Positions 94 to 52,740 of a stretch of 52,741 nucleotides of DNA are shown here, in pieces (position 1 is the stretch's first letter; each line of letters opens with the position of its first letter). The translations under genes and the position numbers were made by a program. A model generated the notes under the pieces. That model saw only the letters and a list, made by a program, of their open reading frames with translations. It was not told where the DNA came from and did not search any database. The stretch spans positions 1-52,741 of the forward strand of contig JAFSDI010000010.1 of NCBI GenBank assembly GCA_017436325.1, written 5' to 3'. This stretch comes from Alphaproteobacteria bacterium (GTDB lineage Bacteria; Pseudomonadota; Alphaproteobacteria; Rs-D84).

Positions 94-126
94 TTTCGTT
101 GCCCCTTTGGTTCCGTGCGTTAAACT

Positions 127-383
127 AAAAAACCGCAATGAAAATCCAATGCGGTCGGGGAGTTCGTAAATCATAAACCTAATGACTCTGTCCGCCTTTG
201 GTGAAATTCACCTATTGTATAGCGGACAGCCCCCCGACATTTTCAGCCAGGGTTAACTAAGATTACGATGCAAATATGGAAATTATAAAATGGATTACGA
301 TACATATAATTATATGTTCGAATATATTTGCACCGAGGTTTATAGGCCTACGACAGCCCCGAACCGGATTCCCACCCAGTTCA
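127..383 (-). ncRNA. Conserved structured leader RNA, copy A, ending in an intrinsic terminator
   Basis: Shares GAACYRGRTGGGAATCYGGYTCGGGGCTGT, GTCGGGGRGC, TATACAAYAGG and AACTCCCCGACCGC-hairpin-T-tract with copies at 31609-31849 and 49831-50070; covarying helices. Confidence 0.75.
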
Positions 384-389
384 TATGCC

Positions 390-465: not shown

Positions 466-1533
466 TTAAAATATGTATTTTATATTCAAGTCGCCAATCC
501 AACCAGTTAAATCACCATCGTGACGGCCAATAGTTGCCTTGAATGCAAAGGAATTTGTTTGTTTTTCAAGACTAATTCCATATTCTGTATAATTGTCAAC
601 AGTGGGTATTTCAATTTCTGCGTCGTTAATGGTTATGTTTTTGTCTGTGTTTGATAACATTATGTACTTTACACCCAATGTGCCATACCAATTGTTGCCA
701 ATGTGCTTGACCGCATTTAGGGCAGGGGTGACTTCAAAAAATCCAAAGGTTTGATTTTGCAGGTCGTCACTGTATGTACTGTTTTGAGTTTCGTTCTTTA
801 TCCATGTGTAACCTGCAGTTATCACGGGATAAAGGCTGAATGTATCATCAAGCTTTAGGTTGTATGCAATGTTTGCCATTGCGCCAAACCAAATGTTTGT
901 ATGATTGTCAGAAATAGATGCATAGTTAACATCTGTTTTTAAAAATCCGGTGTTGATTGTGCTGTTGATTATAAAATTGTGCGTTTGTAATTTGTTAAGT
1001 ATACCAATAAATCCGCCATTTTCATCGCTGTCTAATTCTGAATTCTTGGATGTGCCGTTGATATAGCCACCATAAAATGTCCAATTGTAAAAGCCATTGG
1101 GTGTTGTTTTGTCGTGGGCAGTAAAGCCAATGGTTGCAATGTCATGTCTGGAATCAAATCGATTAAAATTATTTAGGTTTATATCATCTGATGTGTGCTG
1201 CCAATTAAGCCATATATTAGATATTGGCGCGTTTGTGTCGCCGCCGTTGCGCCCCATTGTTCCATCATCGTTGTATTCACCATATAATAATTCAGAACCA
1301 TAAATAGGCTGATTATATGTCGGGGCCGGATTGATTATGGTTTCTGGTGTGGTGATTGGATGTGCAGAAAAAGGCCTTGCACGCGTAGAAAATAGATTTT
1401 GTGTGATTGTGTGTTGTAATGTCGCAATTGTTGTGGCACCGATTGCTTGTTCGGTTGCGAATAGTGTTTGGTCGGCATATGCGTTGGTCGCAGAAAGTGC
1501 AATTAGTGCGCTGAAAAATAAAAAGTGTTTCAT
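466..1533 (-). CDS. Outer-membrane beta-barrel / autotransporter-beta-domain-like protein
   Basis: Signal peptide (AYA), alternating aromatic beta-strand pattern, C-terminal KYIF. Confidence 0.6.
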   Translation of the reverse strand: MKHFLFFSALIALSATNAYADQTLFATEQAIGATTIATLQHTITQNLFSTRARPFSAHPITTPETIINPAPTYNQPIYGSELLYGEYNDDGTMGRNGGDTNAPISNIWLNWQHTSDDINLNNFNRFDSRHDIATIGFTAHDKTTPNGFYNWTFYGGYINGTSKNSELDSDENGGFIGILNKLQTHNFIINSTINTGFLKTDVNYASISDNHTNIWFGAMANIAYNLKLDDTFSLYPVITAGYTWIKNETQNSTYSDDLQNQTFGFFEVTPALNAVKHIGNNWYGTLGVKYIMLSNTDKNITINDAEIEIPTVDNYTEYGISLEKQTNSFAFKATIGRHDGDLTGWIGDLNIKYIF

Positions 1534-1656
1534 ATTTTTCTCTCTTACATTGTTGGTTCTTGTATAGTTGAATTATAGCATAAAAATCTGTTTAAAAAAA
1601 TGCTAAATATATTTTTTATTGTTAAAAGGTAAATTTTTGATAAAATTGTGCTTGTT

Positions 1657-2205
1657 ATGAACGAGAAAAATGAAGATTTTATAGATAGACCTGTCGTTAT
1701 GGTCGGCTTGATGGGGGCAGGGAAGACAAGTGTTGGGCGTGCGTTGGCGCGCAGACTGGGGATTCCTTTTGTGGATTCAGACAAGGAAATAGAAGCCGCT
1801 GCAGGCTGTAGTGTTGTCGATATATTCGCAATGTACGGCGAAGAAGAATTTCGCAGGGTAGAACAACGTGTTATAGAACGATTGTTGGATACACCGCCAG
1901 CATTGAAGGTTATTTCAACAGGAGAGGGCGCATTTATAACCCCGGCGATTCGTGAAATGATTATGGAAAGGGCGCTTTCAATATGGTTGCGTGCTGATTT
2001 GGACTTGTTGGTGCGCAGAACAGGGCGGCGCGATACACGACCACAATTGCTGAATACGGATAGTCGAAAAATTTTATCGCAATTAATAGATGAAAGATAT
2101 AAAACATATGCGTTGGCGGATATAACCGTGCAAACACAGGACGAGAATTTGCGAAAAACCTTGACAAAGGTCTTGGCTGCAATAGAAGATTATTCAAATA
2201 AATAA
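1657..2205 (+). CDS. aroK: Shikimate kinase
   Basis: GLMGAGKTSVG P-loop, DSDKEIE, FRRVE, RPQL motifs; ATG at 1657 preferred. Confidence 0.92.
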   Translation: MNEKNEDFIDRPVVMVGLMGAGKTSVGRALARRLGIPFVDSDKEIEAAAGCSVVDIFAMYGEEEFRRVEQRVIERLLDTPPALKVISTGEGAFITPAIREMIMERALSIWLRADLDLLVRRTGRRDTRPQLLNTDSRKILSQLIDERYKTYALADITVQTQDENLRKTLTKVLAAIEDYSNK

Positions 2206-15567: not shown

Positions 15568-18342
15568 CTATATGCCATTTGGAACCAGAGAAGATACATC
15601 GATTTCTATTTGAGTATCGCCGAATGAAGGCGGTAAATTATCTAAGACAAAATTATATACATTGTTGCATTTGCCTTCATCATCATCAGATAGTCCGGTA
15701 TAAGAACATACCTGGTTGTTGTCTGATATTGCATCTTGTGTGCACCAAAAGTATTCTGGTTTTGTTTCATCAAATACTGTAAATGGTGAAAACAATGCTG
15801 TATATTGATCTATGCCTGTAAAATTCCCAGCATATATAGAACCTAATATATTAGGTGTTATAGAATATGGAAAGAATTTTAGTTTTGAACAAGATTTATC
15901 ATTAATAGGCCTTCGAAAATATGGGTGTATACCGGTAGTAACAGAACCTTGACTTTTATTAATATATGCAACAGGTAATATCGGCAGGCAGGTCTCTGTT
16001 ATACCGTTGCGACTGCGACGGCCACCGTTGTGCCAGCAAGAGCACATACCCCATGATGCGGTATCTACCATTTCTTGATATTTTGCAGGACATATGTCTT
16101 CAAGCCAGCCTACGTAATGACTGGCTGTTGTGCCGGTATCTGTTCTGGTATATGCGCATACGTTTTTTTCAAATGGTGCTGCAAAAGTAAAATCGTTAGA
16201 TTGGCGTTCAAGGAAACGACCTTGTTTATTTTTGCATTGTAATGCCAGATAAGAGATTATTTGATTATATATTTCTGTGGCAACACCAGTTGCACGTTTG
16301 TGACGTGGTATTAATTTGTTTTCATTATCTAATAAACCATAATTTATGTGTGGCAAATCGTTTATACAGGCATAGTATTCGCCAATTGGGTCGTCTGTTT
16401 CGGCGCTTGGATCGTATGTGCATTGTTCAGTCGTTGTGTCCGTTTCGTTAGAGAAATTTGTAGATAAAAAGTCTTCTGTTATAAATGAGTCCATACCACC
16501 AAAGACCTGTTCAATAAGATCTGGATTGTTGCACGCATCGATTGTGGTCAGTTGTTGTGCGCATTGTGAAACATAACCAGTTTGTTTGGTTGGTGTAGTG
16601 CCTGTATAGTGATATAGGGTAAACCAATCAATTGCACGACCTTGTTCAAATAGACCACTGCTGGGGTAAAAGAAGTTTTCATAATTCTTGCCACCAAATT
16701 TATCAAAACATTGTTTTACAACAGCACGACAGGCAGTTAAGGTGTCTGTTTCGTTACGATTGGCAATGAATTCATTAATTATATTGTTGTCAAACATATT
16801 GTTGCAAGATTCAATGTAATCAGAACACATTTGTGTATTTAATGAAATTTTATCTGGTTGTAATGGTATTGTTTTGTCGTCTGATATCGATGTTGTCGCC
16901 CCGTCAATGGCGGAATCGTTGTTGATATAGCAAGTGGAAATATAGTTAAAACAATTTTGTTTTATTTCTGACACTTTGTCTTTTTGTGCATAATATATGT
17001 CAAGCATTGCTTTGTCCAGATATTCTGACCATACTTTGTCGGCATTTTCAACACATTTATCAAGTGCAGGTTTTGCAAATTTTTTTGTTCGGTTCGTGAA
17101 GTTTTCTACAAAAGTACGGTTGTTTATATTTTGTGCTAATTTTTGATGCAGCGCATCAACCCCAGGTGTAAAGGATAATAATTGTTCAAGTTTGAAAAAG
17201 TCTTTGACACCTGTTATTGGTGCACCTGTATCAATATCGATAAATTCACCATTATCTAAGCATCTGTGATAGTTTTTGCCACAGACTTCTTCGCTAAGTA
17301 TTGCTGTTTCAACAGCATTGACACATGTTGTTATGTCATAGGCATTGTGTTTTTGTCTGTTTTCTATGCGCGCAAGATCCAACATTGCACTGCCTTCGCG
17401 TATTGCGGATTTTACCTTTTTTTGTGTTGTTTCAATCGCAGATTGTACGGTGTTACAATCTTGTTCAATCGCCATCAAATACGCATTTATTGCGCGCTGT
17501 AACGATGCATCGTTACAATCTGCACGAACGGCATTTCTGCATTGTGGGTATACTGCATTGTATAATGCAAGACCATTGTACGATGCGATAACTTGGCCAG
17601 AGTTGTTTGCGCCAAATGATTCGGATGTATCAAAGGACATATTTATGCTATTTAAATCTGCGTATTTGCCACTGACATTTGTATCTTGACCATTGATAGA
17701 ATTCATTATTGCTTGTAATAATGCCTTAGATGCAGATTTATCATCTGTAAGCGCGTCTTCGCCCTCAGACGCGGTGCGTAATGCCGTAGCCTGGGCGGCG
17801 GTCATTCCGACAACCTGAAGTTCTTCGGTAAATGCGTTAAGCTGTTCGCCGGCATCTTCCAGTGTTTTGCGCGCATTGTCCAGTGAAAATACGCGATCGT
17901 TGCATGAACAGCGGCGATACGCATCGTTTTTTAATGTGCAAAATTGATCCATACATGCAAAATAGGTGTTTTTGCATTGTTCGTATTCGGCACCTGTTCG
18001 CGTTTCTGTAATCGCAGTGGTTGCAGTTGCACGTGCTGCTTGCTTTGGGGTGGTAACAGCATTACGTGAACCGAATGTACGTACTGTTGCGATTCGTGAT
18101 GTTTTCTGGTCGTTATTTGCCACTGTATTTGTTCGGGCGGAAACAGCCGGTTTTGTGGTGCGTGCGCTTAATGCGCGTTGTGTGCGGGCAATTGGTTGAC
18201 GTCTGGGGGTGGTTGCAGTTCTGGATTGGGTTTGTTGTGGTGTATTTCCAGCCCTGATTATTGCATTTCCATCGCGAATAGCCGCGTTGGCGGTACCAAT
18301 GCAGCATAATAACCCAGTAATAAAGGTAAGAAATTTCTTCAT
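15568..18342 (-). CDS. Large Cys-rich secreted hypothetical protein
   Basis: Signal peptide MKKFLTF...ANA, Arg/Thr-rich linker, many spaced Cys; likely start at 18342. Confidence 0.75.
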   Translation of the reverse strand: MKKFLTFITGLLCCIGTANAAIRDGNAIIRAGNTPQQTQSRTATTPRRQPIARTQRALSARTTKPAVSARTNTVANNDQKTSRIATVRTFGSRNAVTTPKQAARATATTAITETRTGAEYEQCKNTYFACMDQFCTLKNDAYRRCSCNDRVFSLDNARKTLEDAGEQLNAFTEELQVVGMTAAQATALRTASEGEDALTDDKSASKALLQAIMNSINGQDTNVSGKYADLNSINMSFDTSESFGANNSGQVIASYNGLALYNAVYPQCRNAVRADCNDASLQRAINAYLMAIEQDCNTVQSAIETTQKKVKSAIREGSAMLDLARIENRQKHNAYDITTCVNAVETAILSEEVCGKNYHRCLDNGEFIDIDTGAPITGVKDFFKLEQLLSFTPGVDALHQKLAQNINNRTFVENFTNRTKKFAKPALDKCVENADKVWSEYLDKAMLDIYYAQKDKVSEIKQNCFNYISTCYINNDSAIDGATTSISDDKTIPLQPDKISLNTQMCSDYIESCNNMFDNNIINEFIANRNETDTLTACRAVVKQCFDKFGGKNYENFFYPSSGLFEQGRAIDWFTLYHYTGTTPTKQTGYVSQCAQQLTTIDACNNPDLIEQVFGGMDSFITEDFLSTNFSNETDTTTEQCTYDPSAETDDPIGEYYACINDLPHINYGLLDNENKLIPRHKRATGVATEIYNQIISYLALQCKNKQGRFLERQSNDFTFAAPFEKNVCAYTRTDTGTTASHYVGWLEDICPAKYQEMVDTASWGMCSCWHNGGRRSRNGITETCLPILPVAYINKSQGSVTTGIHPYFRRPINDKSCSKLKFFPYSITPNILGSIYAGNFTGIDQYTALFSPFTVFDETKPEYFWCTQDAISDNNQVCSYTGLSDDDEGKCNNVYNFVLDNLPPSFGDTQIEIDVSSLVPNGI

Positions 18343-18468
18343 CTCTGACTGAATGTTAGCAAAATTATAAAATTTAGCGCAAGCGAATAATAAAAATATT
18401 GTTATATAAATAATTTTTTTATTTTCTTGTTGCAAAAATCTTAAAATTAGTATAGTATACTGGTCGCT

Positions 18469-18555
18469 GCGGATATGGCGGAATTGGTAGACGCGCTAGT
18501 TTCAGGTACTAGTGGTAGCGATACCTTGGAAGTTCGAGTCTTCTTATCCGCACCA
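18469..18555 (+). tRNA. tRNA-Leu(CAG)
   Basis: Cloverleaf with long variable arm, CTAGT-ttCAGgt-ACTAG, encoded CCA. Confidence 0.95.
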
Positions 18556-18603
18556 GTTTTAAGACTTGTGTGTTTTCTTGCTGCGGGTCTTAGGGTGAGT
18601 TTT

Positions 18604-18679
18604 GGGGTTGTAGCTCAGCTGATAGAGCGCTACGTTCGCATCGTAGAGGTCGTGGGTTTGAGTCCCATCAGCTCCACCA
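18604..18679 (+). tRNA. tRNA-Ala(CGC)
   Basis: G3:U70 pair, CTACG-ttCGCat-CGTAG, CCA; T-loop TTTGAGT variant. Confidence 0.92.
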
Positions 18680-18700
18680 ATTTTTGTTGAGTAAGTCTTC

Positions 18701-18787
18701 GGGGATATGGCGGAATGGTAGACGCTGAGGACTTAAAATCCTTTGGTCATTGCGACCGTGTGGGTTCAAGTCCCACTATCCCCACCA
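18701..18787 (+). tRNA. tRNA-Leu(TAA)
   Basis: GAGGA-ctTAAaa-TCCTT, long variable arm, CCA. Confidence 0.95.
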
Positions 18788-18830
18788 CTTTTGTCGCCAA
18801 GTTCTTGGCGCTTTTTTGGTTATATAGTTT

Positions 18831-18907
18831 GGATGTGTAGCTCAGTTGGTTAGAGCGCTTCGTTCACATCGAAGAGGTCGTTGGTTCGAGTCCAATCACA
18901 TCCACCA
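18831..18907 (+). tRNA. tRNA-Val(CAC)
   Basis: CTTCG-ttCACat-CGAAG, GGTTCGAGTCC, CCA. Confidence 0.95.
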
Positions 18908-30815: not shown

Positions 30816-31586
30816 TTATTCTGTTTGTGTTTCAGTTGTTGTTCGGTCAATTATTTCCCAACGATATGTTGCTGTTTCACCTAATTTTTCCGCAGTTAAG
30901 ACATATTTACCGTTGCTGGATTCATTAAGTACATTTGGAATGGCTTGTTCGGCAAGTTGTTTTGCTGTGTCTGCTGTAATCTTTACTGCCGCCAAGGCAT
31001 CAGCCAAATTTGTATAACCGTCTGGGATTGTGCCGATTTTATCAATGCCGGCGCTTAATTGTGGTAATGTGTATATTTTTTCCCCTATACCCGTTGTTGC
31101 CCCGTGCGTAATTAGTAATTCATATAAGCTTGTTTCAGGGAATTCGTTAATAAAATCAGAAAAATAATTTGATATATCATAAAGACCCAAATTATCGTTC
31201 CAGCCAGCGAATAATCGTAATGTTATTCCTGCAACGCCTGGGAATTCAGTGTTAAAATAACTGTTGTATAAAAAATCATATATGTTGTTTATATCATTTG
31301 ACTGACCAGAAAAGAAGGGTGTACTAAGCCAGTCGTTTTCAAGTCTTCCAAATAAACGGTGTATTGTTCCCCTGCCCGCAACTTCGGCATATGTTGCGGT
31401 GGAATCAGGTGTGCCGATTTTGTTTGATAGTGTTGTTATGTCGCTTTGATTTGCTTTGGAATCTAATAAGTTTAATGTAGCGTAATTTGTCATCTGTTCA
31501 TCAAAAAATCCGCGGGATATAATTGATGCAGAGGCGACACTTGTGATTGTTAGCCAAATGATTGTACTGATTAAAATTTTGTTCAT
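30816..31586 (-). CDS. Secreted 'KIGTLP' family fibre-like protein (copy B)
   Basis: Signal peptide, SIISRGFFDE, KIGTIPDGY, GKYVLTA..ATYRWEIIDR. Confidence 0.8.
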   Translation of the reverse strand: MNKILISTIIWLTITSVASASIISRGFFDEQMTNYATLNLLDSKANQSDITTLSNKIGTPDSTATYAEVAGRGTIHRLFGRLENDWLSTPFFSGQSNDINNIYDFLYNSYFNTEFPGVAGITLRLFAGWNDNLGLYDISNYFSDFINEFPETSLYELLITHGATTGIGEKIYTLPQLSAGIDKIGTIPDGYTNLADALAAVKITADTAKQLAEQAIPNVLNESSNGKYVLTAEKLGETATYRWEIIDRTTTETQTE

Positions 31587-31608: not shown

Positions 31609-31849
31609 AAAAAAACCGCAATGAGAATTCATGCGGTCGGGGAGTTCACAAATCACCTAAAAGTCTGATTCCGCCAGCCTTCGGGAAACCCTGTTGTATA
31701 AACTGACGGCTCCCCGACCGGTGTGGCTAAGCGGGGAAAACAATAAAAGACGCTTTCGCGCCCCTTTGTCGCGGATTCAGTATCGTTTTGCGATACCGCT
31801 TTTAGGCAAGGCTTGTGACAGCCCCGAACCAGATTCCCATCCAGTTCAA
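31609..31849 (-). ncRNA. Conserved structured leader RNA, copy B
   Basis: Same conserved blocks and compensatory helices as copies A and C; ends CCGCATGA..TCATTGCGG-T7. Confidence 0.75.
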
Positions 31850-31854
31850 TCGGA

Positions 31855-31884
31855 ATTATACCATAAATATTGTATTTTTGTAAA
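31855..31884 (-). promoter_or_regulatory. sigma70-type promoter of leader RNA B
   Basis: TTTACA-18bp-TATAAT with extended TG. Confidence 0.7.
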
Positions 31885-31903
31885 TATAAAAATTGTTGAT
31901 TTG

Positions 31904-38635: not shown

Positions 38636-38679
38636 TAGTTGTATGTAAAAAAATACACGCGCCCGCAGGCGCGTGCAGC

Positions 38680-39004
38680 AGATACACATATAAGCCGGAT
38701 TCTGTTCTGCCACCAGCCCAGTATGTTTCGCATACCATTCTGTGGTAGTGGACATGATTAATCTGCAAATCTCATTACTGAGAAATGTCAAGCCTTCTAC
38801 CCGCCCCTAAACGTGGGACCCGTAAGTGGGGCCTATTTGAAGTTGCTGCACGCAGAGATTGCCCGTTTCACTCGAATTTAATCGTTTACGTCACTGTTGC
38901 TCTAATCGTCAGGTCGCCCTGCCCGGTATATTAGCCGGTGCGCCGTCCCATGCAGTCCGGACTTTCCTCTGGCTTTTTGAGGGCCAGCCATGTCCCGCGT
39001 ATCT
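38680..39004 (-). ncRNA. rnpB: RNase P RNA
   Basis: GAGGAAAGTCCGG and ACAGAATCCGGCTTAT universal motifs; P1 AGATACGCG/TGTGTATCT. Confidence 0.92.
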
Positions 39005-39157
39005 TACAGTGCACTATAATAGCATTTTTTTTATTCGTTTCAACACTTTTATTCTTTTTTTTATATTTGGTTAAGAAAATATGACTATTGCCCCTTGAAA
39101 AGTTTTTTTGCATAACTATATCGTAGGTAAATAATTTTTAACTTAGGAGTGAAAAAA

Positions 39158-46549: not shown

Positions 46550-46623
46550 TGGTGCGGGCGAAGGGAATCGAACCCTCGTCTTCAGCTTGGGAAGCTGACG
46601 TGCTGCCATTATACCACGCCCGC
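46550..46623 (-). tRNA. tRNA-Gly(CCC)
   Basis: GCGGGCG/CGCCCGC acceptor, TCAGC-ttCCCaa-GCTGA, GGTTCGATTCC, CCA. Confidence 0.95.
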
Positions 46624-49796: not shown

Positions 49797-49825
49797 TTGA
49801 AAATAATCTTGGTATTAGGTATAAT
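49797..49825 (+). promoter_or_regulatory. sigma70-type promoter of leader RNA C
   Basis: TTGAAA-17bp-TATAAT. Confidence 0.7.
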
Positions 49826-49830
49826 TAATG

Positions 49831-50070
49831 TTGAACCAGATGGGAATCTGGCTCGGGGCTGTGGTGGCCCAGTACATCCGGTGCAAGTATATGTTATGTG
49901 TCGTAATCCGACGATTATTTCCTGTATTTGCACTGTATTTTTGTTAATCCCTGACTTGAAAGTCGGGGGGCTGACCGTTATACAACAGGTGTTTTCACCA
50001 AAGGCGGCAGAATCAACGATGTACTGATTACCAACTCCCCGACCGCTTATGATTTCCATAGCGGTTTTTT
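49831..50070 (+). ncRNA. Conserved structured leader RNA, copy C
   Basis: GAACCAGAT-GGGA-ATCTGGCTC hairpin; conserved blocks; terminator CCGCTTATG..CATAGCGG-T6. Confidence 0.75.
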
Positions 50071-50094
50071 AACACTAAAAAAAGAGGGATTTTT

Positions 50095-50754
50095 ATGAAT
50101 AAATATTTACTTGGGGTTCTTATGGGGTTGGGCACAATCGGCACAACATACGCATCAATTGTTTCGCGTGGTTTCTTGGACGAGGCCCTAACCAGTTACG
50201 CCACCACCACAGCACTGGATTTAAAAGCAGATAAGGCAGATTTGATGACGGTATCAGACACAATAGAAGAATGGAACAAAATTGCTAATATAGGTGAAGG
50301 ACTCGATTTTTGTAGCGGCATGAACTTGGATGCTATAGTAGTTAATGGCGAGACGATTTTCGGTAGCTGTTACGATACATATGATGTTAGCGATTTAATT
50401 AAGCGTTTTGTTCCATATCAGGCTCAATATGAGGGAAATTGGTTTATTCAATTATTAGAATTATCGACAAAGGGTTATACAAAAGGAATCGATCAAATAA
50501 AAGGTTTGGAAACTTTAACATCAGACATTGAAGATTTGAACATCAAAATCGGAACTTTGCCGGCTGGTTATGAAACTGTTGGTGATGCGCTGACCGCCAT
50601 TAATGCCAAGGTTGATAACAAGATTGAAAATCTGTCTGAAACCGCCAGTGCTGGAAAATATGTCTTAACCGCGGTTAAGGTTGGTGACCAGACAACCTAT
50701 GCCTGGGAATTGATTGACCGCAGTGAAAGCGAAACCACAACAACAAGCGAATAG
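50095..50754 (+). CDS. Secreted 'KIGTLP' family fibre-like protein (copy C)
   Basis: Signal peptide, SIVSRGFLDE, KIGTLPAGY, GKYVLTA..TTYAWELIDR. Confidence 0.8.
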   Translation: MNKYLLGVLMGLGTIGTTYASIVSRGFLDEALTSYATTTALDLKADKADLMTVSDTIEEWNKIANIGEGLDFCSGMNLDAIVVNGETIFGSCYDTYDVSDLIKRFVPYQAQYEGNWFIQLLELSTKGYTKGIDQIKGLETLTSDIEDLNIKIGTLPAGYETVGDALTAINAKVDNKIENLSETASAGKYVLTAVKVGDQTTYAWELIDRSESETTTTSE

Positions 50755-51264: not shown

Positions 51265-52740
51265 TTATTCGGTAGTGGTAGTGGTGGTTTCACCCTCGCG
51301 ATCTATCTTTTCCCAGTGATATGTCGCATTATCACCAACAATATCAACAGTTAAGACAAATTTACCGCTTGAACCCTCTTGCTTAGGGTCTGGGATTGCC
51401 GCCAGTGCTGCAGCCTTAGCATCTTCGGCAATGCCCTTAATTGCGGTCAGCGCCGCCCCAACACTATCATAGCCCGCCGGCAATGTACCGATTTGCCTCT
51501 CTATAGCTCCCGTACGGTCAAATAAGCCTGTATGATTATCATTTCCATAAATCTCATCCTCAAGTCCCCAAAGAAGATCTATAGTATCACCAAATAAAAT
51601 AGCTAGGATTCCGGGGTGTTTTGCAGATGTATCGCCATATAAATCAATAATAAGTTCTTCAAGGGATTGTGGATATGTTGCATCAACTGGGAATATCGTA
51701 TGACGAGAATTAAAATCCTCTAATATACTTGATAACATAGGTGCTACCCCACTTGGCAATGTACCGATTTTGGCATCGGTTTCACTTATCATACCTGCAA
51801 GATTTTTGCCATCTGGTACAGTACCGATTTTGGTTTCGATAGAAGCGATTTTACTATCTAAATATAGGGTGCGTGTTGATATTTCAGGAAGCGATAAAAT
51901 TTTTACTCCAGCAAGATTCTCAGATCCGTGTAAAATTATATTTAATAATCCACCTATATTGTAATCTTTACCAAGAAGATCTGCAGCTGGATATTTTGCA
52001 TAATCTAGAGTTCCGTTAGCGGTATATTTGTAAGTTAGCATTGATGATGGCAATGTGCCGATTTTATCAATCCCTTCACTCAGTTTCCACAGTGGATATA
52101 TAGGGCCTGTATAGTCAACACCATCGATTGTTGTGGCTCTTGCGCCCTGAATTAATAAAGGTGCTGTTTGAGATTCATAGGCATTCAGTAAAAGTCTTTC
52201 GTTCTTGCTAAAAGCGTATACTCCGGGAAAACCATCCCCTCCTTTATCAGTCCAGCCTTCATACATAGCCTTTAATCCTGGGTTAGCAAGCGCCCCATTC
52301 TCATCCGTCCAGCCTTGGTACATACCTTGAACCGTTATGCCTTCTGGCAATGTGCCGATTTTGGTATTTAAATCTTTTATGCCAAGATAGGTTTGGCCAC
52401 TGACTGAATCAGTCCAACCACCAGTTAGCGATAGCATTGAATGAAGAATGAAGCCTTCTACTAAATCAAAAGCCCCGTTAATGTTATTATTAACTTTATT
52501 TGGATTAAAACCATATGCAAGGTCTCCGATTTCAGCACCCCATAACATTTTTAAATTATCTACAGAATCACTTATTTGTGTATTTAATTCTATAAAATCG
52601 CTTTGATTCGCTTTCAGGTCTAGTGATGTGCTGAGTGCGTATTCTGTTAATTTTTCGTCTAAAAATCCGCTTGATACGATTGATGCGTTTGCAGTGCCTG
52701 TGCTAACAATTCCTAATATCGTGCCGAATATGCCGGCGGT
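51265..52740 (-). CDS. Secreted 'KIGTLP' family fibre-like protein (copy D, 5'-truncated by window end)
   Basis: Frame open from 52740 (TAGIFGTILGIVSTGTANASIVSSGFLDE...); five IGT(L/V)P repeats; GKFVLT..ATYHWEKIDR C-terminus. Confidence 0.85.
   Translation of the reverse strand, partial: TAGIFGTILGIVSTGTANASIVSSGFLDEKLTEYALSTSLDLKANQSDFIELNTQISDSVDNLKMLWGAEIGDLAYGFNPNKVNNNINGAFDLVEGFILHSMLSLTGGWTDSVSGQTYLGIKDLNTKIGTLPEGITVQGMYQGWTDENGALANPGLKAMYEGWTDKGGDGFPGVYAFSKNERLLLNAYESQTAPLLIQGARATTIDGVDYTGPIYPLWKLSEGIDKIGTLPSSMLTYKYTANGTLDYAKYPAADLLGKDYNIGGLLNIILHGSENLAGVKILSLPEISTRTLYLDSKIASIETKIGTVPDGKNLAGMISETDAKIGTLPSGVAPMLSSILEDFNSRHTIFPVDATYPQSLEELIIDLYGDTSAKHPGILAILFGDTIDLLWGLEDEIYGNDNHTGLFDRTGAIERQIGTLPAGYDSVGAALTAIKGIAEDAKAAALAAIPDPKQEGSSGKFVLTVDIVGDNATYHWEKIDREGETTTTTTE

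Follow-up and report, generated by a model that had tools for sequence, protein, structure and literature searches.

sRNA-Xcc1 (Rfam family RF02221) is said, in a paper citing Chen 2011, to have been described there as a free, trans-acting small RNA (sRNA). It was found in Xanthomonas campestris as an RNA of 88 nucleotides (nt) with mapped ends (PMC2996969), seven copies have been reported in Xylella (PMC12189769), and in the commonest integron cassette of Xanthomonas it lies directly upstream of symE and in the same direction (10.1101/2025.06.18.660453, 2025 preprint), a placement that would suit a leader RNA too. The nine Brt RNAs of Bartonella (Brt1-9) are highly structured, about 200 nt long and carry a terminator directly upstream of a helix-turn-helix (HTH) gene, and riboswitch-like control of read-through has been proposed by their authors (PMC5387305). 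Here we analyze a leader RNA of about 245 nt that is present in three copies (A, B and C) in a stretch of 52,741 nt, hereafter the window (contig JAFSDI010000010.1 of assembly GCA_017436325.1), from an alphaproteobacterium of the order Rs-D84. The window is one of the 42 contigs of a genome of 1,037,644 bases with a completeness rating of 95.8%. The leader can be drawn in two folds, A and B, and the alignments described below show that both sets of pairings are conserved. No description of the element was found in the literature searched.

A search of the window against Rfam 15 at gathering thresholds returned only RNase P RNA and five tRNAs, with no TPP, FMN, cobalamin, c-di-GMP or T-box RNA, and the leader reached no family's gathering score. 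The original prediction, comparing by eye, had found the leader unlike the TPP, FMN, cobalamin, lysine, glycine, c-di-GMP, c-di-AMP and T-box consensuses. Unlikeness to known families is borne out at the gathering level, but below threshold sRNA-Xcc1 recurs on the 3' half. It was the only family to recur at E-value thresholds and it always matched the region of fold B, end to end, the P6/P7 hairpin of the leader being hairpin 1 of the sRNA-Xcc1 model. When RF02221 was compared with 20 loci, nine matched, with scores that included 51.1 bits (the best, from a relative), 44.5 bits and 42.1 bits (a copy of the genome under study). Within this genome RF02221 matched 26 places at 27-40 bits (best 40.1), 25 of them inside known copies and none above the cut-off; copy C of the window scored 22.3 bits. 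Since these scores lie below the gathering score of RF02221 (53 bits), the 3' half of the leader is a near-threshold relative of sRNA-Xcc1 and, by the Rfam rule, not a member. RF02221 gave no match in 14 control genomes, and no Rfam match was obtained at E <= 0.01 on the named plasmid loci described below.

Pairings of the leader in folds A and B

From the three window copies the original prediction had drawn a P1 hairpin with a GGGA loop, a GGGG/CCCC pairing with a CUG/ACU loop, helices of 6 and 9 base pairs (bp), a hairpin sequestering GUCGGGG and a stem closing a UAUACAAYAGG...CCRAAGG loop, and had attributed them to selection on RNA structure. All of these helices are present and covary in the 38 full-length copies of the genome (alignment A2), where they form one nested structure of 65 pairs, fold A. 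Standard pairs filled 92.9% of its 2423 cells, against 33.7-44.1% when the 3' partners were slid by one to three columns, and double-sided changes were found in 33 of the 65 pairs (294 cells, against 43-76 cells when slid), supporting selection on RNA pairing. None of 500 shuffles matched fold A in any of five measures, a control that overstates independence because the copies of the genome are paralogs and the relatives are kin, and this counts against the reading proposed below; the weakness that paralogy gives to the shuffles does not touch the control with slid partners or the count of pair types. The ten column pairs with the highest mutual information all lay within fold A, and RNAalifold, run unguided, recovered P1, P2, P2b, P3, P6 and the terminator.

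Support was strongest for P2b and P3, the long-range helices. P2b was paired in 100% of cells, with three of its six pairs doubly changed and three pairs each divided among three Watson-Crick types, and P3 was paired in 94.7% of cells, with eight of nine pairs doubly changed. Among 23 relatives 125 of 133 P2b cells were paired, against a mean of 65% and a maximum of 74% when partners were swapped. The closing helix of P4 was paired in 86.4% of cells (7 of 12 pairs doubly changed), the architecture of this arm depending on the subtype. Strand 1, which in fold A pairs with strand 4 (P2), co-varies with it in other genera. The hairpin of strands 2 and 3 (P5) was paired in 93.4% of cells in the copies of the genome and in 97.2% in 66 relatives, with five of seven pairs doubly changed.

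Two further observations concern the 5' part of the leader. At locus L080 of a relative (G019; about 1501-1713, minus strand) the 5' strands of P2b and P3 mismatch their 3' strands, which looks like recombination between two copies or misassembly of a repeat. An AUG lies in the P1 loop of some copies and is missing in others; a leader peptide was rejected on this ground, with no formal test.

The GUCGGGG hairpin had been taken as a fixed feature. This part of the prediction does not stand, as strand 3 also pairs with strand 4 and forms one arm of a strand exchange: strand 3 (GUCGGGGNG) is complementary over 9-10 nt to strand 4 (CNCCCCGAC), just ahead of the terminator. The alternative pairing, fold B, was analyzed with a covariance model of the 3' half (R1) comprising the local hairpin, P6, P7, H2 and the terminator and excluding the helix of strands 3 and 4. 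Two alignments were used, one of 66 R1 matches from relatives, none of which had served in building the model (A8), and one of 22 sequences from other families (A9). The closing helix of strands 3 and 4, although outside the search model, was paired in 93.9% of cells in the 66 relatives, with six of nine pairs doubly changed, and in 98.5% in the other families. H2 was paired in 96.6% (five of five pairs doubly changed) and 91.7% of cells, respectively; H2 formed part of the search model, which biases the alignment towards it, and compensatory variants are nonetheless plain in the raw rows. P6 and P7 were paired in 97.8% (seven of seven pairs doubly changed) and 92.1% (five of five) of cells in relatives. 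All four helices of fold B therefore keep their pairing via compensatory changes.

Fold B has the architecture of a three-way junction, in which H2 is made from the junction and the 3' strands of P3 and P2b of fold A, and strand 4 is common to P2, to the closing helix of fold B and to the foot of the terminator. The first bases of the terminator stem, which adjoin the U-tract, are also the last two of strand 4 (or its last three where strand 3 has a G directly ahead of it, 18 of the 38 copies). As drawn from these alignments, folds A and B are shown to be mutually exclusive and fold B to overlap the terminator.

One further reading of these data is that the leader is a constitutive 5' untranslated region in which fold A protects the mRNA or fixes a low level of read-through, the complementarity of strands 3 and 4 being a by-product of internal duplication. 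Strands 1 and 3, and likewise strands 2 and 4, have common core letters, so that part of this complementarity follows, and the energy calculations strongly favour fold A as the ground state. Columns 198 and 273 of alignment A2 bear on this point, since they are unpaired in fold A, pair in fold B only and still covary: they hold G-U in 27, A-U in three, G-C in three and U-A in four copies, with one mismatch, and in the other families A-U in 13, U-A in four, G-U in two, U-G in two and G-C in one. On the aligned sequences this column pair is the best discriminator for fold B. H2, which exists in fold B only, keeps compensatory pairing in distant families, the Rfam model that picks up fold B was built on an independent RNA, and a fixed attenuator needs no terminator foot shared with strand 4. 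With these points set against it, we regard a leader that does not switch as quite improbable.

The exchange strands could also be followed at single positions. At positions 2, 4 and 7 of strand 3, in the 88 sequences of A8 and A9 together, a changed base paired with the consensus partner in none of 28 cases; it was compensated in strand 2 in 23 of the 28, in strand 4 in 20 and in both strands in 16. In a genus of another family the equivalent position is altered in strands 1, 2, 3 and 4 alike, and where strands 3 and 4 went from U-A to A-U the 3' arm of the terminator has changed to match. With four strands exchanging partners and covariation in both topologies, the leader appears, on comparative grounds, to be an unusually clear natural bistable RNA.

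Folding with ViennaRNA gave fold A as the calculated ground state, and the unconstrained minimum-energy fold equalled fold A in 25 of the 38 copies. For 13 divergent copies the fold A energies cannot be relied on, since shifted MAFFT columns served as their constraints. Since fold A is the ground state, the default outcome is expected to be termination, and fold B would need a helper or a kinetic window.

Promoter, terminator, copy number and downstream genes

The leader forms part of a unit that always starts at a promoter and finishes at a start codon. A promoter had been predicted for each copy, and this is upheld beyond copy C (Table 1): a -10 hexamer with at least five of six consensus bases lies 6-8 nt ahead of P1 in 40 of the 43 copies of the genome that have their 5' end. 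In copy C, P1 begins 7 nt past the -10 box. Some promoters, for example at 385-440 and 31850-31900 of the window (both minus strand), have a run of five to eight A directly after the -35 sequence TTTACA; the length of the run varies among copies, the spacing is constant at 16-18 nt, and phase variation is possible. At the other end of the leader the terminator consists of a 6-bp stem with four G-C pairs followed by 5-6 U, that is a G+C-rich stem with a direct U-tract as in intrinsic terminators. Its stem was paired in 98.6% of cells in the copies of the genome and in 87.5% in the 66 relatives, with six of six pairs doubly changed.

The end of the U-tract lies 20-46 nt from the start codon in 36 of the 38 copies, leaving no space for a second promoter, so that transcription of the genes has to come through the leader. 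This arrangement bears on whether the copies are instead a multi-copy sRNA gene, whose transcript of about 245 nt, or a 3' fragment of about 100 nt, acts in trans. Fold B would then be what the processed fragment adopts after losing strands 1 and 2, like the free-standing 88-nt sRNA-Xcc1, and read-through would be leakage. We consider this unlikely. Every full copy with downstream sequence has an open reading frame (ORF) in the same direction 20-46 nt past the U-tract, without promoter space, and although the strong promoter and terminator of each copy should make a short RNA abundant, some members of the class lack a terminator. The most variable helices, P2b and P3, are internal pairings with no common seed. 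Hfq, ProQ and CsrA were not found in the genome, at its 95.8% completeness, which weighs against a classical sRNA role. A trans-acting RNA would be in keeping with fold A as the stable fold of the full transcript, with the nearest Rfam family being an 88-nt sRNA with mapped ends (PMC2996969) and with the Brt RNAs, which are reported to be highly transcribed when the genes behind them are barely so (PMC5387305); it leaves unexplained the overlap of strand 4 with the terminator foot and the covariation of strand 4 with both partners.

The three copies originally reported for the window were all located, within 1 nt of the boundaries first given, but three understates the number in the genome, which is at least 49: blastn detected 42 copies, and 49 were found both by an nhmmer profile of the three window copies and by the covariance model of the 3' half. 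A fiftieth, divergent copy that the nhmmer profile missed surfaced through the Rfam matches (contig C13, 15400-15900); its four exchange strands are changed jointly, as in the genus of another family described above (strand 3 GGUUGGAGG, strand 4 CCUCCAACC), and its AUACAA loop is replaced. At about 250 nt each the copies make up about 1.2% of the genome, and many of them lie at contig ends. To our knowledge, a density of about 49 copies per megabase would be exceptional in comparison with the known riboswitch classes.

The predicted cis position ahead of genes for secreted proteins was confirmed by the downstream ORFs, as well as by the gap between terminator and ATG given above. A crude hydropathy criterion assigned a signal-peptide-like start to 37 of the 38 downstream ORFs, the sole exception being a mis-called start; for the long ORFs of the whole genome the figure was 235 of 624. 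The downstream ORFs of the genome belong to several unrelated protein families. In the largest one, of which 16 members were aligned (the copy C ORF and 15 paralogs, alignment A10), a motif past the N-terminal signal peptide is conserved, as are the C-terminal 60 or so residues with an acidic Thr/Glu-rich tail, the two being separated by a hypervariable middle of 0-300 residues. The N-terminus encoded behind copy A is found nearly identical behind other copies. No match in Pfam or NCBIfam was obtained for the family of the 219-residue ORF. AlphaFold2, run on this ORF with 16 paralogs, gave a predicted local distance difference test score (pLDDT) of 42.1 and a predicted template modelling score of 0.20, and its look-alikes in the atlas all scored below 0.9 (phage fibre families 0.79-0.81), below the level of evidence and useful as leads only. 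Because the family searches were empty, the pLDDT was 42 and the look-alikes are sub-evidence, the designation of these proteins as surface fibres stays a guess.

The number of copies and the form of this protein family could also suggest a repeat acting at the DNA level, that is a cassette of promoter, leader and signal peptide serving recombination or gene conversion (antigenic variation), or a mobile promoter, with RNA structure being secondary. Recombination would favour identity, whereas the helices differ between copies and yet stay complementary; structure rather than sequence is conserved across the families of the class, and the element precedes several unrelated protein families. Some features do fit a DNA repeat: the copies number about 50 and many of them lie at contig ends; the main protein family is hypervariable between its conserved ends; the halves of L080 mismatch, as after recombination or misassembly; and class members occur on conjugative plasmids and next to transposases. 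No link to a recombinase was found, though no systematic search was made. Taken together, we judge a DNA-level role of this kind to be very improbable.

Table 1. Positions in the window of the leader copies, of their downstream ORFs and of the elements of copy C.
Feature	Position	Strand	Remarks
Leader copy A	126-384	-	
Leader copy B	31609-31849	-	Subtype with other variable arm
Leader copy C	49831-50071	+	
ORF behind copy A, start only	1-93, ATG at 93-91	-	Extends past the window edge
ORF behind copy B	30816-31586	-	256 residues, same family as copy C ORF
Ribosome-binding site (RBS) AGAGGGA and copy C ORF	50083-50754, ORF 50095-50754	+	219 residues, signal peptide, ASI(V/I)S(R/S)GF family
Promoter of copy C	49797-49825	+	TTGAAA-17-TATAAT, 11/12 consensus matches
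P1 hairpin, 9 bp, GGGA tetraloop	49833-49854	+	93.0% of cells paired, 5/9 pairs doubly changed
Strand 1 (GGGG)	49855-49858	+	Partner of strand 4 in fold A (P2); 99.3% paired, nearly invariant in this genome
5' strands of long-range P2b and P3	49862-49878 (P2b 49862-49867, P3 49870-49878)	+	
P4 variable arm	49879-49935	+	Closing helix formed by 49879-49890 and 49924-49935; shape of inner hairpins variable
Strand 2 (CCCUGAC)	49949-49955	+	Partner of strand 3 in fold A (P5); hides candidate antiterminator strand
Strand 3 (GUCGGGGGG)	49962-49970	+	Pairs with strand 2 (fold A) or strand 4 (fold B)
P6/P7 hairpin	49971-50010	+	Conserved internal loop UAUACAACA / AAAGG; common to both folds
H2 hairpin of fold B	50011-50029	+	AAUCA 50011-50015 with UGAUU 50025-50029; loop and 3' arm overlap P3 3' strand 50018-50026
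P2b 3' strand	50028-50033	+	
Strand 4 (CUCCCCGAC)	50035-50043	+	CCCC with strand 1 (fold A); all 9 nt with strand 3 (fold B)
Terminator-like hairpin ACCGCU/AGCGGU, 12-nt loop	50042-50070, U-tract 50066-50070	+	First two bases are last two of strand 4

Elsewhere in the window, the RNase P RNA is of bacterial class A (38675-39005, minus strand, 159.5 bits) and, as aligned, has a shortened P3 region and a stretch of 24 nt in place of the 81 of the model. Four of the tRNA genes form a cluster (18469-18904, plus strand) and one stands alone (46553-46623, minus strand). Two long ORFs on the minus strand lacked family matches, one of 427 residues (51265-52548) in NCBIfam and Pfam and one of 955 residues (15568-18435) in NCBIfam.

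Distribution in the Alphaproteobacteria

The close relatives of the host are Candidatus Enterousia or unclassified Alphaproteobacteria of the animal and human gut. Enterousia belongs to the GTDB order Rs-D84, a group of uncultured gut bacteria, and has genomes of about 1 Mb or less, for which a partner-dependent life has been predicted (PMC12306168). A covariance model search of related genomes, as the original prediction had proposed, gave R1 matches in 137 of the 151 genomes of the order (E <= 1e-4, own genome included). Copy numbers from this survey are lower bounds, as at most 23 candidates were scored per genome; in a sample scored with no such cap the relatives held 1-26 copies, against 49 in the genome under study. 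A fixed DNA pattern matched only 7 of 29 loci of relatives. In one family of the order (f4) the matches were AT-rich hairpins without the G/C strands; they were taken as false or degenerate and excluded from A8.

Genes downstream of the leader in relatives encode lipoproteins, secreted proteins and two ORFs resembling family-2 glycosyltransferases. Read by eye, the N-termini of the latter (L082 and L090) resemble those of cytoplasmic envelope-building enzymes, which are not secreted. At another locus (L079; 753-846, minus strand) a sub-threshold match to the Rfam DUF3800-VII RNA (28.6 bits, cut-off 36.2) lies about 700 nt from the leader.

The leader had been called lineage-specific, and this claim has to be abandoned. 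In a survey of the class with one genome per family, R1 matched 17 of 151 genomes, or 15 of 149 without the own genome and its congener, and blastn with one of the class-level copies returned 95 plasmid records (48 of Rhizobium, 28 of Agrobacterium and others), always in unannotated intergenic DNA. The class-level genomes with a match range from 0.9 to 4.3 Mb. A covariance model of the 5' domain (R2) had matches almost confined to the genus; the 22 class-level loci nevertheless keep P1, strand 1, P2b, P3, a small P4, strands 2 and 3, P6/P7, H2 and strand 4, the long-range pairs having been read by eye with no formal count. No match was obtained when copy C of the window was compared with plasmids by blastn.

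R1 confirmed four copies on three named plasmids, and the architecture is present on plasmids of the culturable hosts Agrobacterium, Rhizobium, Shinella and Novosphingobium. Of the plasmid copies, one stands ahead of a gene for an HTH regulator, another ahead of an AraC-type gene and a third next to a Tn3-family transposase; in an Agrobacterium plasmid the leader is about 55 nt upstream of the HTH regulator gene. In the Rhizobiales and Sphingomonadales an extra conserved hairpin with a GGGGGCGUACC-type loop was observed between strand 4 and the RBS of plasmid copies (L250, 2660-2700; L251, 2665-2700 and 3695-3725; L252, 2610-2640; L238), and it may serve the exchange as a fifth G-rich strand.

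Some members in other families (L231, L232, L237 and more) have no terminator and carry the RBS close behind strand 4, and for L232 and L237 the minimum-energy fold has the RBS paired to strand 4. Since members with and without a terminator occur, the core is joined to two kinds of expression platform. Riboswitch classes typically show such a combination of one core with two types of platform.

A candidate switch and its relation to known RNAs

From the conservation of both folds we propose, with moderate confidence, that the leader is a cis-acting two-state element, a terminator/antiterminator switch operating by exchange of four strands, in which fold B would be the ON state. The G-rich strands 1 and 3 and the C-rich strands 2 and 4 would swap partners. 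In fold A the pairing of strands 1 and 4 would be locked by P2b and P3, strand 2 would hide strand 3, and the foot of the terminator would be left free, turning expression OFF. In fold B strand 3 would take 9-10 nt of strand 4, including the first two or three bases of the terminator stem, allowing read-through. The stem pairs next to the U-tract are those that matter most for termination. Given the overlap of strand 4 with the foot of the stem, fold B would strip the terminator of just these pairs, and it is by this overlap that the terminator would be controlled.

What favours fold B may be a ligand, a protein or transcription kinetics, and would act most likely during synthesis and before P3 and P2b zip. 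Strand 2 would be synthesised ahead of strand 3. If strand 3 then captures strand 2, the free 5' strands of P3, P2b and P2 would zip with their partners as these emerge and the terminator would form; if strand 2 or the 5' strands are held, strand 3 would be free when strand 4 emerges, fold B would form and the polymerase would continue.

Several points weigh against this switch, besides the kinship of the sequences already mentioned. In the calculations fold A is much the more stable, with a mean margin of about 9 kcal/mol for the 38 copies over a structure constrained to fold B and margins mostly of 10-18 kcal/mol for the well-aligned copies, and only two or three bases of the terminator stem are covered by fold B. 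The terminator stem is itself short (6 bp, with a 12-nt loop). The intrinsic terminator of the original prediction holds as far as hairpin, U-tract and kept pairing are concerned, but a simple terminator scan left that of copy C unflagged because it accepts loops of 3-8 nt. In L231 the minimum-energy fold is fold B together with a pairing of strand 2 with the RBS; on this calculation fold B would be the OFF state there, and the logic of the switch may not be uniform. In other bacteria class members precede genes of very varied kinds, for lipoproteins, membrane proteins and regulators of the HTH and AraC types, so that no single metabolite fits, and the gene context offers no ligand candidate. 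As to expression, contigs from four gut metatranscriptomes were used, their cover falling almost wholly on the conserved rplS gene of relatives, and parts of the window that lack cover carry no weight as evidence. One contig of 151 nt (depth 2.4), covering 49980-50132, extends from the leader across the terminator into the ORF start and gives a weak hint of read-through; it may be contaminating DNA, and contigs cannot reveal RNA ends.

The first interpretation of the leader as a structured cis-regulatory RNA is thus partly supported, being right in kind, wrong on range and incomplete on anatomy. A wider proposal is possible, which we advance tentatively and with more doubt than belief: the leader would represent a new, widespread alphaproteobacterial riboswitch-like class, including the copies on Rhizobium and Agrobacterium plasmids, that senses a ligand or global signal and has the sRNA-Xcc1 fold as its ON state, with sRNA-Xcc1, and perhaps the Brt RNAs, as members or fragments; in Enterousia it would be the master switch of the surface repertoire, about one gene in twenty. 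If the leader is a switch of the kind proposed further above, it would govern some fifty genes for secreted or surface proteins at once, the cell surface of a tiny gut genome (below about 1 Mb) would be a regulon controlled by one RNA device, and the interaction of Enterousia with its partner or host would become approachable by experiment. The plasmid copies in culturable hosts offer a route to dissect the mechanism, which may also give sRNA-Xcc1, and possibly the Brt RNAs, a function and a larger context.

Among described systems, the leader resembles riboswitches and attenuators in being a promoter-proximal structured RNA with exclusive pairings, one of which takes part of a terminator, and riboswitches in joining the same core to a terminator or an RBS platform in different hosts. 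Like them it has a covarying structured domain in the 5' leader and, in silico, mutually exclusive platform structures. It differs in that riboswitches have a compact aptamer beside the terminator, whereas here four strands and long-range locking helices are involved, and in that the genes behind the leader form no metabolic pathway.

The Brt RNAs, compared by description only, are likewise alphaproteobacterial, multi-copy, structured and terminated RNAs, and the leader copy on the Agrobacterium plasmid shares with them a place ahead of an HTH gene; unlike the present leader, they are reported to be Bartonella-specific and to precede HTH regulators (PMC5387305). The likeness to sRNA-Xcc1 extends over a G/C-rich closing helix of 9 bp, a short junction and two hairpins, the first of which has an internal loop of the AUACAA type and an inner hairpin. 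sRNA-Xcc1, however, is a free-standing RNA of about 88 nt. In the leader about 130 nt separate the promoter from the core, and this segment pairs with the core, giving an RNA of 245 nt in which a 130-nt 5' extension is able to unfold the core and a terminator stands behind it, in alphaproteobacterial hosts and with genes for secreted proteins downstream.

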